64,000 nucleotides of DNA, taken from Minisyncoccota bacterium (GTDB lineage Bacteria; Patescibacteriota; Minisyncoccia; Phycocordibacterales; PALSA-1337). A program made the translations under genes and the position numbers. The notes below the pieces were generated by a model, which had not been told where the DNA came from, did not search any database, and was given only the letters and a program-made list of their open reading frames with translations. The stretch covers positions 2,668-66,667 of the forward strand of contig JBAZRX010000004.1 in assembly GCA_041662725.1 (NCBI GenBank), read 5' to 3'. Below are positions 9,181-45,269 of this stretch, piece after piece. Numbering within the stretch: position 1 is the first letter of the stretch; each line of letters begins with the position of its first letter.

Positions 9181-9244
9181 CTCGAGGCGAGGCGTTCTTG
9201 GAGGTCAGGCCTCTGCGTCGGTGTGGAGGCCTGACCTCCAAGAA
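9181..9244. repeat. REP-like element: partial core (CTCGAGGCGAGGCG) plus 19-bp-stem hairpin TTCTTGGAGGTCAGGCCTC-loop-GAGGCCTGACCTCCAAGAA
   Basis: Perfect 19-bp inverted repeat between the convergent rnj and 9245..10594 genes. Same hairpin family as 32985-33020 and 42470-42540 but in opposite orientation. Confidence 0.85.
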
Positions 9245-10594
9245 CTACAACTGATTTATCGTCTGCTGGATAGAATCTGCTTTACTAACTACACTATTGC
9301 CGTAGCTCGCAATTAATGAGGACTTACTGCATGAACTACCAGAGAAATATCGACAAGCGGCATTACGTTCTGCGGTATAGCCACCATTAGAAGCACCTAA
9401 GTCTCCTAGATAAAGGGCAGAAGCCATGAAAGCATGTCCTGGATTCCAAGGATTGGGTGGTGAACTTCCTAGACCTAAAGCTGAAGCTATGCGACTTTCA
9501 AATAAAGTCCAAGTGGAAGCAATGAATTGTGCGGGACCCATAGCGCCACCCCAACCAACTGATTGAGGACAAGATACAACTGTTTTCATTGGATCATACC
9601 CAAGTCTTTGTACGATATTAATAAATATAGGCACATCGCGCGTCGGGTTCATAACTTTATAGACAGATTGGCTTGTGCTAACTTTTATACCCTCACCTGT
9701 TGAAGTGTTAGAAAGATAACAGTTACCGACATTAGCTCCTAAAGCTGATTCCTGGGTAAGAACGGCTAGAATAAAGGCTGGACGAACACCAGTTTTCTGA
9801 CCAGCTTCATTAGCATATTGGAGAGCTTGACCGAATTGGATTTTTTGTCCACCGGCCAACGGGAATAATGCCGCTCTAATCTGTGCCGCACGAGTGGCTT
9901 TTTCTGCCGCTAAAGAAGAATAAGCTTTTTCATTATTTTTACTTATAGAAAGTAATTTCTTTTGCTCAGCCTGATTTGCTTCAATATTCTTTTGCTGTTG
10001 TTGGATGGCGTAACGGGCATCTACGGCTGCATTTTTACGTTTTGTTAGAGCAGTTTTCTCGGCATCAGTAGCGGCTTTGTCTGAACGAATTTGTTCAAAT
10101 GTAGATTTGAGACTTTCTTGTATTGATTCAAAATCATCTAGATCTTCAAAAAAACCAGTTATACTAGATTGCGACAGTATTACTTCTGGTAACGAATAAG
10201 AATTTATTTCGTAAGTTTTGCGAAGAATAATAGAGATTGTTTCTTTACCACGATTTATACGAGCATCTAAAGCCTCTATCTCACTTTGCTTCTGTGTAAT
10301 ATTATTACCAAGAGTCTGAATAAGTAAATTCTTTGCTTTTATATCCAACTGCGCGGCTTTGATTTTAGCAGATAATGTGGCGATATCATTAGTTAAGGAA
10401 GAGCTTTTAGCTTGAGCATTGGCAAGATCTTTTTGTGCTTCAGCTAATTCATTATTGACTTGGTCAAGAGCGGCTTGGCACTGGGCTTTTTCTTGAGGTG
10501 TATCGCACTTAATAACTTGTGCAGAAGCATTTATTGGTATTAAAAATGACACAATTGTGACAATTAAAATAATAGTAGTCGGTAAAGACTTCAT
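9245..10594 (-). CDS. secreted coiled-coil protein with C-terminal lytic-transglycosylase (SLT)-like domain
   Basis: Signal/TM N-terminus and long Q/A/K-rich coiled coil. C-terminal LTQES...GAMGPAQFIASTW...ALYLG resembles the ES / GLMQ / AYNAG SLT motifs. Confidence 0.45.
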   Translation of the reverse strand: MKSLPTTIILIVTIVSFLIPINASAQVIKCDTPQEKAQCQAALDQVNNELAEAQKDLANAQAKSSSLTNDIATLSAKIKAAQLDIKAKNLLIQTLGNNITQKQSEIEALDARINRGKETISIILRKTYEINSYSLPEVILSQSSITGFFEDLDDFESIQESLKSTFEQIRSDKAATDAEKTALTKRKNAAVDARYAIQQQQKNIEANQAEQKKLLSISKNNEKAYSSLAAEKATRAAQIRAALFPLAGGQKIQFGQALQYANEAGQKTGVRPAFILAVLTQESALGANVGNCYLSNTSTGEGIKVSTSQSVYKVMNPTRDVPIFINIVQRLGYDPMKTVVSCPQSVGWGGAMGPAQFIASTWTLFESRIASALGLGSSPPNPWNPGHAFMASALYLGDLGASNGGYTAERNAACRYFSGSSCSKSSLIASYGNSVVSKADSIQQTINQL

Positions 10595-10701
10595 AAGATG
10601 ATTATAACAGATTTATCAGTTGATTAGATATCTAGAGATGAAACCCCTCCAAAGGGCTAATCTCTACAAAAACACCGGATTGTATCCGGTGTTTTTCATG
10701 A

Positions 10702-11397
10702 TTAAGCTTTTTTATCACCCTTTTCGCCACCTTTAGATTCTGCAGGATTACCTGTGGCAGGAGCGGCTTCTCCATCTTTCAATTCTTTGCCTTTAGCTTC
10801 AACTTCAATTGCTGTCATATCAATTGCGGCAGGAGCTTCCTCAACTTCTTCCTTGGCGACGGCTATAGAAGCAATAACTTCCTCAGGATTAATCTTTAAT
10901 TCTACACCAGCTGGAATAGGTAGATTTTTTGCCAAAATAACATCTGTAAGTTCTACAAGAGCGGAAATATCTACTTTAATATTTTGAGGTAAATCACGAG
11001 GAGCGGCTTCAATCTCAACATCACGGCGAACTTTGACGAGAATACCGGCTTTGTCTTTTACAGCAGAAGAAATACCTTCAAATATAAGAGGAACAGCGAC
11101 TTCAACCTTTTTACCTTTCTCAATAACATAGAAATCAGCATGACGAGGTTCATCGGTAATAGGATGAACGTCAACTTCGTGAATTAGGGCTTCATGTTCA
11201 TTACCAGCGGTATCTTTTAGGATAATAACTGATGATTCACCAGCCTTTTTCCAAATCTTTTTGAATTCAACTGTTGAAACAAGAATAGGAGTAGAAGTCT
11301 CTTTTGGACCATAGAAAATAGCTGGGATTTTGCCAGTTTTCCTGACAGCATCCGCTCTGGCTTTCATATCTCGCTTTTCTATGGCTAAAGATAACAT
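10702..11397 (-). CDS. rplY: 50S ribosomal protein L25 / general stress protein Ctc
   Basis: 231 aa. N-terminal L25 fold (LSLAIEKRD...GKIPAIFYG...), C-terminal acidic/Ala-rich Ctc-type extension. Confidence 0.85.
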   Translation of the reverse strand: MLSLAIEKRDMKARADAVRKTGKIPAIFYGPKETSTPILVSTVEFKKIWKKAGESSVIILKDTAGNEHEALIHEVDVHPITDEPRHADFYVIEKGKKVEVAVPLIFEGISSAVKDKAGILVKVRRDVEIEAAPRDLPQNIKVDISALVELTDVILAKNLPIPAGVELKINPEEVIASIAVAKEEVEEAPAAIDMTAIEVEAKGKELKDGEAAPATGNPAESKGGEKGDKKA

Positions 11398-44195: not shown

Positions 44196-44252
44196 TATTA
44201 AAGATTGTTAGAGCTTAGCGAATATTACTATTCACAACACTTGGTTGTAATT

Positions 44253-44278
44253 CAAACAATTGCACAATATGACAATTT
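44253..44278. repeat. short copy of the ACAATTG-type array (AACAATTGCACAATATGACAATTT)
   Basis: Near-identical to 47161-47186. Lies between the convergent gatB and obg. Confidence 0.6.
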
Positions 44279-45269
44279 AAGAAATTAACCTCTTAGCAAT
44301 CTCTTCGCCTATTTTCTTTATAGATTCATCATCAAGCACCGTCACATCCAAAATATCTTGATTATACTTACTTAAAGCTTCGCGTGCAGACTTAATAGTT
44401 TCTGCATCAACTAGATCTGTTTTTGTAAGAATTATCACTTCTTTCTTTTCAGATAAACCATTACCATATTTTTCAAGCTCTTTTCTTATAGAAAGATAAG
44501 ACTCTACTTCGAGGCGAGGCCTCGAGGCCTCGCCTCGAGGCGAGGCCTCGATTAAATGCAGTAATATCTTCGTTCTTTTAACATGTTTCAAAAATTTATG
44601 ACCCAAACCTTTTCCTTCAGCCGCACCTTCTATAAGTCCAGGAAGATCCGCTAGGATAAAACCCCCTTTCAAAGCTCCAAGGTTTGGATCTAGTGTAGTA
44701 AATTGGTAACTACCAACTTTTGCATGAGCAGAAGTAAGAGCATTTAAAAGACTTGATTTACCTGCGTTTGGTAAACCGATAAGCCCAGCATCAGCGATAA
44801 GATCAAGCTCAACTTTGAAATCAGCTTCTTCTCCATTAACACCAGGTGTAGATTGTTCGGGACTAACATTAGTAGAAGCTTTGAAATATTCATTACCTAA
44901 GCCACCACGACCACCGTGAAGTATCTTAGAAACTTGTCCCTCTTCAACAAGATCAACTATACGTCCAGTTTTTGTATTTTCAATGACAGAACCGATCGGC
45001 AGGTCAATATAACAATCATCTCCTGTTTTACCTTGTTTACTTAAGTTTTGCCCGCTCTGACCATTTTCAGCTACGAATAGCTTGGTAGTTTTATGACGCG
45101 CCAAAATATTAATGTCACGAACAGCACGTATATAAACATCGCCACCTTTACCACCATTACCACCGGCCGCCCCAGCAAACTCTTTAAATTTTTCATGACG
45201 CCAACGAGCGACACCGTTGCCGCCATTTCCTGCTTTAGCATGGAATTGTATTTCATCAATTAATGCCAT
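44277..45269 (-). CDS. obg: GTPase Obg/CgtA, one in-frame REP insert
   Basis: Obg fold N-terminus (FHAKAGNGGNG...GGNGGKGG), G1 GLPNAGKSSLL, DLPGLIEGA. Insert [17 protein letters not shown]. Confidence 0.85.
   Translation of the reverse strand: MALIDEIQFHAKAGNGGNGVARWRHEKFKEFAGAAGGNGGKGGDVYIRAVRDINILARHKTTKLFVAENGQSGQNLSKQGKTGDDCYIDLPIGSVIENTKTGRIVDLVEEGQVSKILHGGRGGLGNEYFKASTNVSPEQSTPGVNGEEADFKVELDLIADAGLIGLPNAGKSSLLNALTSAHAKVGSYQFTTLDPNLGALKGGFILADLPGLIEGAAEGKGLGHKFLKHVKRTKILLHLIEASPRGEASRPRLEVESYLSIRKELEKYGNGLSEKKEVIILTKTDLVDAETIKSAREALSKYNQDILDVTVLDDESIKKIGEEIAKRLIS
44510..44551. repeat. REP core (1.5 copies), in-frame in obg; last copy in the window
   Basis: TCGAGGCGAGGCCTCGAGGCCTCGCCTCGAGGCGAGGCCTCGA. 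Confidence 0.9.

Follow-up and report, generated by a model that had tools for sequence, protein, structure and literature searches.

A 64,000-nucleotide stretch of a Minisyncoccota (Patescibacteria) genome (GenBank assembly GCA_041662725.1, contig JBAZRX010000004.1, positions 2,668 to 66,667; hereafter the window, in whose own numbering coordinates are given) is densely populated with GC-rich palindromic repeats, while its own GC content is 34-42%. The repeats are found both between genes and, in frame, inside them, and the window also contains a single gene for a transposase of the RAYT type (REP-associated tyrosine transposase). The repeats probably represent a hairpin family of the REP (repetitive extragenic palindrome)/RAYT type, translatable only incidentally through its GC-rich composition, which colonised the loop-coding parts of housekeeping genes, with selection at the level of the host deciding which copies survive. 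In such a mechanism the RAYT-like HUH tyrosine transposase would recognise the hairpins in single-stranded DNA and would seed or maintain copies, which would land between as well as within genes; the genic copies would then be the subset that survived purifying selection on the host, that is, those with a net length of 3n, a tolerated peptide frame and a loop position.

The repeat family

The elementary unit of the family is a 13-nt mini-hairpin, GAGGC-NNN-GCCTC, whose loop is either GAG (unit a) or CTC (unit a′, the reverse complement). Units are concatenated through CTCGAG junctions with a strict 13-nt period, forming arrays of one to four units in either orientation. A scan of the window with the loose pattern GAGG-N5-CCTC returned 65 matches against 0.2 expected, and 64 of them fall within positions 9,201-44,549. 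The 26-nt core, GAGGCCTCGCCTCGAGGCGAGGCCTC, is the a′a dimer and a perfect palindrome; the first-pass annotation of this DNA had rightly described it as its own reverse complement and as stop-free on either strand, since the three readings EASPRGEA(S), RPRLEARP and GLASRRGL were reproduced and no stop occurs across the six frames. The window contains seven exact copies of the core and 12 with at most three mismatches, against none expected.

Two further modules accompany the units. Module B, CCCAGTGGCGATTTTGCTAAATCGGCC, is 37 nt long and occurs in eight copies at up to three mismatches (none expected), recovered to within 1-2 nt of where the annotation had placed them; it consists of an inner hairpin, CGATTT/AAATCG, nested within the GAGGC...GCCTC clamp common to the 13-nt units, and it carries, as had been reported, a stop codon in exactly one frame per strand (TAA forward, TAG reverse). 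Three B2-type copies with GTAG add to these eight, giving 11 B-type hairpins; the tag on the 5′ side of the inner stem is GTAG in B2 and GTGG in the B1 and Bv copies. Module C is a 46-nt perfect, terminator-like hairpin of TCA/TGA-loop units, present in three copies (9197-9242, 32981-33018 and 42482-42527), all at gene ends, where these hairpins look like terminators.

The hairpin is the conserved feature of the family. Folded as DNA, the core reaches -13.8 kcal/mol (z=-5) and module C -21.9 kcal/mol (z=-8.3), while the B folds have z-scores from -2.3 to -3.1. The exact consensus is kept in 64% of the units (29 of 45 canonical within genes, 12 of 19 between genes); 12 of the 64 units are TGA- or TAG-bearing variants, with a stop on one strand, and six of these lie within genes, in open frames, so that the family is not uniformly stop-free. 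Scans of the window against Rfam and for tRNAs gave no matches. No flanking direct duplications of a target site were seen at the copies, and the CTCGAG periodicity runs on into their flanks in the window. The 8.9-kb giant gene at 33018-41873 is devoid of copies (P=7e-4 under a uniform spread over coding DNA).

The RAYT-like transposase

The transposase gene of the window is flanked by B modules and core dimers. In this and the following lists a strand is given where one is assigned.

24571 to 25158, minus strand: gene for the RAYT-like HUH/Y1 transposase, 195 aa, single copy within the window.
24525 to 24582, plus strand: 3′ flank of RAYT, one 13-nt unit and a GTAG-tagged B2 hairpin, overlapping the RAYT stop codon.
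25155 to 25210, plus strand: 5′ flank of RAYT, B variant CTGCTGAATC, intergenic.
25292 to 25357: two exact 26-nt cores, intergenic, upstream of the hydrogenase small subunit gene.

The protein matches Pfam Y1_Tnp with 36.4 bits (gathering score 23), and H73 and H75 of the HUH motif, together with Y133 in the sequence YIHLNP, are invariant across 25 homologues; its top NCBIfam family is REP_Tyr_transpos, though with a score under that family's cut-off. A phmmer search against the PDB sequences returned nothing relevant; the AlphaFold2 (AF2) model, with a pLDDT of 91.6, has its best PDB fold match in 4ER8 (E=1.9e-5), which is E. coli TnpA-REP in complex with a REP hairpin. About 324 homologues were retrieved, mostly from Patescibacteria, several of them named RayT by JGI.

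The association between transposase and hairpins was found again elsewhere. In one metagenome contig (L023) a homologue with 54% identity has an exact 26-nt core on both flanks, and in a third genome (L115/L116) a homologue with 64% identity, located between gatB and obg, is surrounded by a GGAGG...CCTCC hairpin of its own, TTCCGGAGGTTACACCTCCGGAA, which is also present in frame in site 3 of the TGT gene, in Obg, in SecA and in the transposase gene; the units in L116 are GGAAGC-CTC-GCTTCC and CCGGAGGTGTAACCTCCGG. These cases indicate that neither the association of RAYT with GAGG...CCTC hairpins nor the entry of the hairpins into genes is unique to the window.

In L115, hairpin copies were observed within the RAYT open reading frame (10240-10254 and 10565-10579), and a 7-nt AGAGGTA tandem or inverted repeat adjoins obg at 11575-11690. 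The location of the RAYT gene varies: in the window it lies between the genes for the oxidoreductase alpha subunit and the hydrogenase small subunit (24571-25158), in L115 it occupies positions 10001-10612, and it is absent from the sister contig L111 (16037-16102).

Copies inside protein-coding genes

Among the composite copies of the window, 19 of 29 (66%) are intragenic and are distributed over 11 genes, which encode NifS, NifU, a pyridine-nucleotide disulphide oxidoreductase, an ADP-forming acetyl-CoA synthetase, the alpha and beta subunits of a 2-oxoacid:ferredoxin oxidoreductase, the large subunit of a NiFe-hydrogenase, a 136-aa protein, a PfkB kinase, TGT (three sites) and Obg. The host genes were confirmed by Pfam, PDB alignments and orthologues. 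The syntenic sister genome used for comparison (L111; ENA ERZ27249449, k141_947274) has no RAYT and no repeat family, and it keeps the gene order from LOG to the disulphide oxidoreductase; it was compared with window positions 19.7-32.4 kb, with about 78% identity in TGT and other proteins. Its GC content is 52%, against 37-39% here, a large shift between close relatives. The sites and their lengths are as follows.

15288 to 15353, minus strand: NifS insertion 1, two units and B, read in frame; +16 aa versus cysteine desulfurase 9wep.
15593 to 15642, minus strand: NifS insertion 2, one unit and B, read in frame; net only +3 aa versus 9wep, because native residues are replaced.
16001 to 16085: C-terminus of NifS with an exact core (EASPRGEAS), N-terminal extension of NifU with a single unit (SRPRL).
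17687 to 17718: pyridine nucleotide-disulphide oxidoreductase insertion 1, two units, EARPRGLAS, inside the Pfam domain span.
17943 to 17987: disulphide oxidoreductase insertion 2, three units (39 nt), including a TGA-bearing variant in an open frame.
20319 to 20437, plus strand: ADP-forming acetyl-CoA synthetase, two tandem unit-plus-B elements; net +4 aa versus the sister genome.
21641 to 21685: N-terminal region of the acetyl-CoA synthetase, three units, RGEASRSRLEVSPR; net +5 aa versus the sister.
21790 to 21821: C-terminal extension of 2-oxoacid:ferredoxin oxidoreductase beta, two units, RGEASRPSLE followed by the stop; +9 aa versus the sister.
23680 to 23740: oxidoreductase alpha, 3+1 units; net +2 aa versus the sister.
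23856 to 23913: oxidoreductase alpha, four units, RGFSSRPRLEEKPRGLAS; net -1 aa versus the sister; 100% identical in Logan contig L029.
26832 to 26858: NiFe hydrogenase large subunit, one unit and a partial unit, RPRGEAS; net -7 aa versus the sister.
28120 to 28164: 136-aa protein, three units; +10 aa versus the sister.
29902 to 29959: PfkB kinase, four units; +11 aa versus three orthologues and the sister genome.
30636 to 30680: tgt site 3, three units; +10-11 aa versus Z. mobilis TGT, the relatives L004/L012 and the sister (sister: +10).
30981 to 31012: tgt site 2, two units, EARPRGEAS; net -3 to +3 aa (versus the sister -3), near zero because a variable linker is replaced.
31219 to 31297, minus strand: tgt site 1, B variant and three units; absent from Z. 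mobilis TGT; net -23 aa versus the sister.
44508 to 44552: Obg GTPase, three units; net +4 aa versus B. subtilis Obg.

The insertion sites align with gaps or loops of the PDB homologues of TGT, NifS and Obg, and the Obg site is occupied by a different palindromic insert in a relative (L006). An alignment of 24 Paceibacteria TGT orthologues, 391-501 aa in length, revealed that the three tgt sites are hypervariable insertion points; the repeat peptides are found only in the window's own protein among the 120 closest TGTs. In the AF2 model of TGT, whose mean pLDDT is moderate (66.6), the three repeat segments are non-regular coil with low pLDDT. Judging from the intact reading frames, the repeats would thus be translated as short hydrophilic peptides that occupy length-variable surface loops, linkers or termini.

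The TGT insertion sites of Paceibacteria contain up to about 90 extra residues, and several of these inserts look like translated palindromes, for instance GGEIPPDSPRGFEGGIYSP. Removal of the segments in the manner of an intein or intron was considered and rejected, as they are too small, lack such motifs and are in frame; a convergent protein motif was likewise rejected, as the copies are identical in DNA, lie in both orientations and are also intergenic.

Stop codons and coding compatibility

The absence of stops from the core, and the existence of B variants, had been taken in the first-pass annotation as a sign of selection for coding-compatible elements. That reading holds only in part: tolerance of the elements is evident from the composite copies in 11 intact genes, while selection for frame neutrality is unsupported. 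The core has a GC content of 77%; palindromes made from a shuffled core half are open in six frames in 69% of cases, random hairpin units with matched GC-stem composition, in any array, in 76%, and palindromes at genome composition in 15%. Since openness of 69-76% is expected by chance at the composition of the hairpin, stop-freeness is not evidence of design; it is a by-product of GC-rich hairpin stems in an AT-rich genome, and represents a pre-adaptation. The identical 26-nt core is also present in 28 stretches of JGI metagenome contigs, where nearly all copies lie between genes and about one among some 45 is a genuine intragenic case (MurB of L006, read RGEAS...RPRL); in these relatives the core is usually flanked by stem-extending reverse complements, such as aaatccg...cggattt, which are inverted and not direct repeats. 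The core being almost wholly extragenic there, the stop-free property exists where it is unused.

The variant of module B, CTGCTGAATC, had been proposed to remove the stop altogether. It does not: the forward TAA is turned into TGA in the same frame (TGC TGA ATC), and the loss is confined to the TAG of the reverse strand. The reading of the module in tgt is PVAILLNR, a frame with no stop in either version, and both changes are synonymous (TTG to CTG and CTA to CTG); the other two copies of the variant, at 25168 and 27814, are intergenic, so that the stop-reduced form is intragenic in one of three copies and the canonical form in four of five. Both substitutions concern a single pair of the stem, one on each side, and this pair is U-A in eight copies and C-G in three; the inner helix of B is paired in 11 of 11 copies, and the variant folds more stably (-8.6 versus -6.8 kcal/mol). 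Because the change is compensatory, synonymous in tgt and intergenic in two copies out of three, the variant is better explained by maintenance of the hairpin than by stop removal: the compensatory pair keeps the stem intact and makes it stronger.

The further claim that intragenic copies lie only in open frames is correct for the five intragenic B copies, read as GRFSKI(A/V)TG (two), ADLAKS (two) and PVAILLNR (one); as evidence, however, it amounts to survivorship, and for intact genes it is a tautology. More generally, an element that has been shaped by selection to be frame-neutral, i.e., stop-free everywhere, with stop-removing variants favoured since they are able to spread into genes, seems an unlikely explanation. 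It would account for a core open in six frames, for the prevalence of intragenic composite copies and for the loss of the reverse-strand TAG from the B variant, and the 13-nt period, by exposing every frame in arrays of at least three units, does make full openness a real prerequisite. However, the same openness arises by chance and is shared by extragenic cores in relatives, the B variant keeps its forward TGA, and the canonical, stop-bearing B is the form mostly found inside genes. Between the units inside genes and those outside no significant difference in sequence was found: stop-bearing units are somewhat rarer in genes (6 of 45 versus 6 of 19), but not significantly so (p=0.16), and coding DNA is depleted of the family as a whole, as described below. 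The methodological lesson is that a stop-free GC-rich palindrome in an AT-rich genome, or a set of copies confined to open frames, is not evidence of adaptation.

Selection on the surviving copies

Copy density is 0.68/kb in coding and 4.0/kb in non-coding DNA, in a region that is 91.8% coding (binomial p=6e-5); as the copies are six-fold denser in non-coding DNA, coding insertions are filtered and not neutral. The basic unit of the family is 13 nt long (3n+1) and not 26 nt. A consequence of this length is that successive units of an array are read in successive frames, and arrays of exactly three units (39 nt) make up seven of the 20 intragenic arrays and none of the 15 intergenic ones (Fisher p=0.012).

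Orientation and frame are also associated within genes. Units a (GAG loop) and a′ (CTC loop) are read 5 and 11 times, respectively, in frame 0, 12 and 4 times in frame 1, and 3 and 10 times in frame 2, and a canonical a unit is never read RRGL. When frame and orientation were randomised at the level of arrays, with open frames only, the bias had p=0.028 (uniformity) and p=0.020 (association); it is modest, was found post hoc in 20 arrays, and refers to the arrays of the window and not to the whole genome. Its outcome is a recurring hydrophilic peptide, EA(S/R)P-R-GEAS-RPRL. Host-level selection is therefore visible on which insertions survive, in the form of 39-nt arrays found only in genes, the frame bias and the placement in loops.

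It is very unlikely that the intragenic copies are useful to the host and have been domesticated, whether as hairpins in the mRNA with an influence on its translation, decay or termination or as linker peptides of a flexible and hydrophilic kind. The non-random orientation that yields the recurring peptide would agree with such a use, as would the strength of the hairpins (-20 to -33 kcal/mol in the fold computation), the related long, terminator-like hairpins at gene ends and, circumstantially, the RNase J gene nearby. However, the counterparts of these proteins in the sister genome, and 119 other TGTs, function without the segments, the genes that carry copies serve unrelated functions and coding DNA is depleted in copies, while the frame bias has the limits given above.

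Independent assembly and related genomes

An independent Logan assembly of SRR18595301 covers window positions 23,872-25,195 at 100% identity, and both of its ends break inside repeats; this identity demonstrates that the repeats are genomic. The XhoI-like CTCGAG sites in the units and their high regularity might recall a linker, an adapter or a chimera from library preparation or assembly, but the likelihood of such an artefact is negligible: besides the identical assembly, related copies occur in at least 20 contigs of other metagenomes, reading frames are kept in 11 genes, the variation is structured and includes a compensatory pair, and the association with RAYT homologues holds in three genomes.

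The relatives of its RNase J set the window among the Patescibacteria/Paceibacteria, near Taylorbacteria-like MAGs. In the sister genome no dispersed repeat family of its own was found at the same sites, only local palindromes; the family is absent from the RNase J loci of 80 relatives (1.3 Mb), one of which has a different hairpin, GAGGTGTCACCTC, and the exact core pattern has zero matches in 185,579 GTDB species genomes. A synthetic periodic peptide that spanned the preferred as well as the non-preferred frames, searched against a set of 5.8 billion proteins gave 2061 word-sharing candidates, none with E<=10, probably as a result of composition bias filters. In L004 and L012, which are relatives at a greater distance, the L25 gene is followed directly by aldolase-PfkB-TGT, and a 17-kb segment (11.4-28.3 kb: LVIVD, nifSU, oxidoreductases, RAYT and hydrogenase) is missing.

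Mode of spread

The spread and uniformity of the family could instead derive mainly from recombination or templated repair, with conversion-like overwriting of variable linkers or re-insertion into decayed older copies, RAYT being at most the initiator of breaks; this appears doubtful, albeit not implausible. Its basis is the replacement of unique linkers of similar length at about half of the orthologous sites, together with the nature of the segments that relatives have at the same sites, which are either different local palindromes or show a faint likeness to the repeats (GRRSKIAG versus GRFSKIATG; GF...LE..P...LAS). Moreover, the high proportion of exact-consensus units persists despite about 30% DNA divergence of the flanking genes, and tgt site 3 bears a different REP family in another genome. 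Flanking homology tracts, however, are not seen, and the sister segments are only weakly repeat-like, with 46-51% DNA identity in short variable regions; alignments of loops are not reliable, and the same data would result if an insertion were compensated by a later deletion. The replacement of linkers agrees equally with insertion plus deletion, with conversion-like overwriting and with re-insertion into copies that had decayed.

Several observations weigh against a REP/RAYT-type family filtered by its host. Linker replacement, which at about half of the compared sites leaves a net change of -23 to +4 aa, counts against simple insertion, which does not predict it. The GTAG/CGTC tag that classical REPs carry is absent from the 13-nt units and from the 26-nt core, and the top NCBIfam match of the transposase, REP_Tyr_transpos (‘REP-associated tyrosine transposase’), scores 40.7 bits, below the cut-off of 80. 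All family copies lie from about -15 to +20 kb of the RAYT gene, while the outer 28 kb of the window have none, which is unusual for REPs. The frame-by-orientation bias implies that the encoded peptide matters, and hence that some copies could be functional. Finally, the counts refer to a single 64-kb window, in which 20 arrays are intragenic, and the only ‘empty sites’ that bear on mobility belong to a genome whose proteins are about 22% diverged, and not to population polymorphism.

A REP/RAYT-type family shaped by host-level selection nevertheless remains the best account, and a bolder version of it may tentatively be advanced, namely that the RAYT-associated 3n+1 mini-hairpins of Paceibacteria act as a recurrent generator of protein loops. 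Arrays would turn over at the same orthologous loops, as at tgt site 3 in two genomes, each genome having its own co-evolving family; the 3-nt loop of the unit would be flipped or selected in orientation according to frame, resulting in the preferred EA(S/R)PRGEASRPRL, and spread would be local, around the transposase gene. If true, this would be a distinct, concerted and frame-aware evolution of selfish DNA within genes, beyond that of the described Rickettsia palindromic elements (RPEs) or REPINs.

Other features of the window

The remaining copies are intergenic and comprise units, B-type hairpins and module C.

9197 to 9242: module C (perfect hairpin, 46 nt), with the RNase J gene and a 449-aa gene converging on it; related units in the stem.
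16786 to 16860, plus strand: intergenic B and degenerate units, downstream of NifU.
27769 to 27848: intergenic pair, B2 (plus strand) and B variant (minus strand).
28307 to 28335: array of two units, intergenic, with the 136-aa gene on one side and the aldolase gene on the other.
29199 to 29238: exact core flanked by GTACCAC/GTGGTAC, between the divergent genes for aldolase and PfkB; intergenic when the real start codons are used.
32428 to 32470, plus strand: intergenic B2 copy with the GTAG tag.
32943 to 33018: intergenic exact core and long module C hairpin, at the 3′ end of the giant gene.
42482 to 42553: intergenic module C hairpin and one unit, upstream of gatB.

Two large repeat proteins have no hairpin copies in their coding sequence, one at 11451-14414 (LVIVD beta-propeller, 129-nt period) and one at 33018-41873 (2951 aa, with internal repeats). 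At 47153-47371, between two minus-strand genes, an intergenic array with an 8-nt period contains first about nine copies of ACAATTNN and then about 17 of AATTGTNN, in an inverted arrangement; an iterated site for protein binding is conceivable, as is an origin-like region.

Comparison with known systems

The family can be set beside the bacterial interspersed mosaic elements (BIMEs) of E. coli, the MITEs (miniature transposable elements with inverted repeats) and the REP/RAYT (REPIN) systems, the last of these known from Nunvar 2010, Bertels & Rainey 2011 and Ton-Hoang 2012 (PDB 4ER8). With REP/RAYT systems it shares short, multi-copy GC-rich hairpins, a single HUH/Y1 gene flanked by repeats and coding for a protein that has E. 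coli TnpA-REP as its nearest match in fold, compensatory stem changes, and the fact that some REPs are intragenic; the conserved tetranucleotide of REPs has a counterpart only in module B, as GT(A/G)G on the 5′ side of the stem. Classical REPs, however, are 20-40 nt long and overwhelmingly extragenic, whereas here the main unit is 13 nt long and untagged, two thirds of the composite copies are intragenic, copies cluster within about 20 kb of RAYT, and the RAYT-like protein is below the NCBIfam equivalog cut-off. The predominantly extragenic location typical of REPs is not found in the window, but it is found in the related metagenome contigs.

As they are usually described (see also PMC2817692), BIMEs are similarly mosaic arrays of hairpin units in alternating orientation, associated with other short modules; they lie outside genes, and linkers separate their units of about 35 nt, while the units described here abut at an exact 13-nt period and are translated. 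MITEs are characterised by terminal inverted repeats together with target-site duplications and have a length of 100 bp or more, whereas no such duplication was seen here; in enterobacteria, small mobile sequences and MITEs are at times fused in frame to host open reading frames (Delihas 2007, PMC2759123; review PMC10969869). Di Nocera 2013 (PMC3733652) listed intragenic GTAG/CGTC REPs that code for 20-30 aa in Opitutus terrae, R. conorii and others, and argued that inactivating REP insertions are simply purged.

Palindromes located in frame within genes are the hallmark of the Rickettsia RPEs, according to the summaries of Ogata et al. (2000, 2002) given in PMC10969869 and PMC3733652. The likeness to RPEs, drawn from their described features (a likeness in sequence would not be expected), lies in palindromes placed in frame in many unrelated housekeeping genes of a small-genome, host-dependent bacterium, with the extra peptides at fold-compatible positions and with intergenic copies as well. 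The differences are in size, RPEs being about 100-150 bp long with one conserved peptide reading each, against a 13-nt unit and arrays of 13-76 nt; in reading, as here both orientations and three frames are used and the frames rotate within an array; and in the host phylum, Patescibacteria, and the RAYT-like gene flanked by repeats. A literature search, part of it aimed at Patescibacteria and the candidate phyla radiation (CPR), found no CPR report, which is not proof of absence.

If the REP/RAYT-type explanation is right, the selfish palindromes that Rickettsia carries in coding genes have an independent counterpart in CPR bacteria, another small-genome and host-dependent lineage, a parallel that speaks for hairpin repeats being able to settle in protein loops where purifying selection is weak. 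Such colonisation may help to explain lineage-specific length differences in CPR proteins, as in the TGTs of 391-501 aa among close relatives. On the practical side, repeats of this kind break short-read assemblies, inflate the low-complexity regions of proteins and can mislead start-codon calls. Compared with the known cases, what sets the family apart is the 13-nt strictly periodic unit with its rotating frames, the location of two thirds of the copies within genes, their clustering around RAYT and the phylum of the host.

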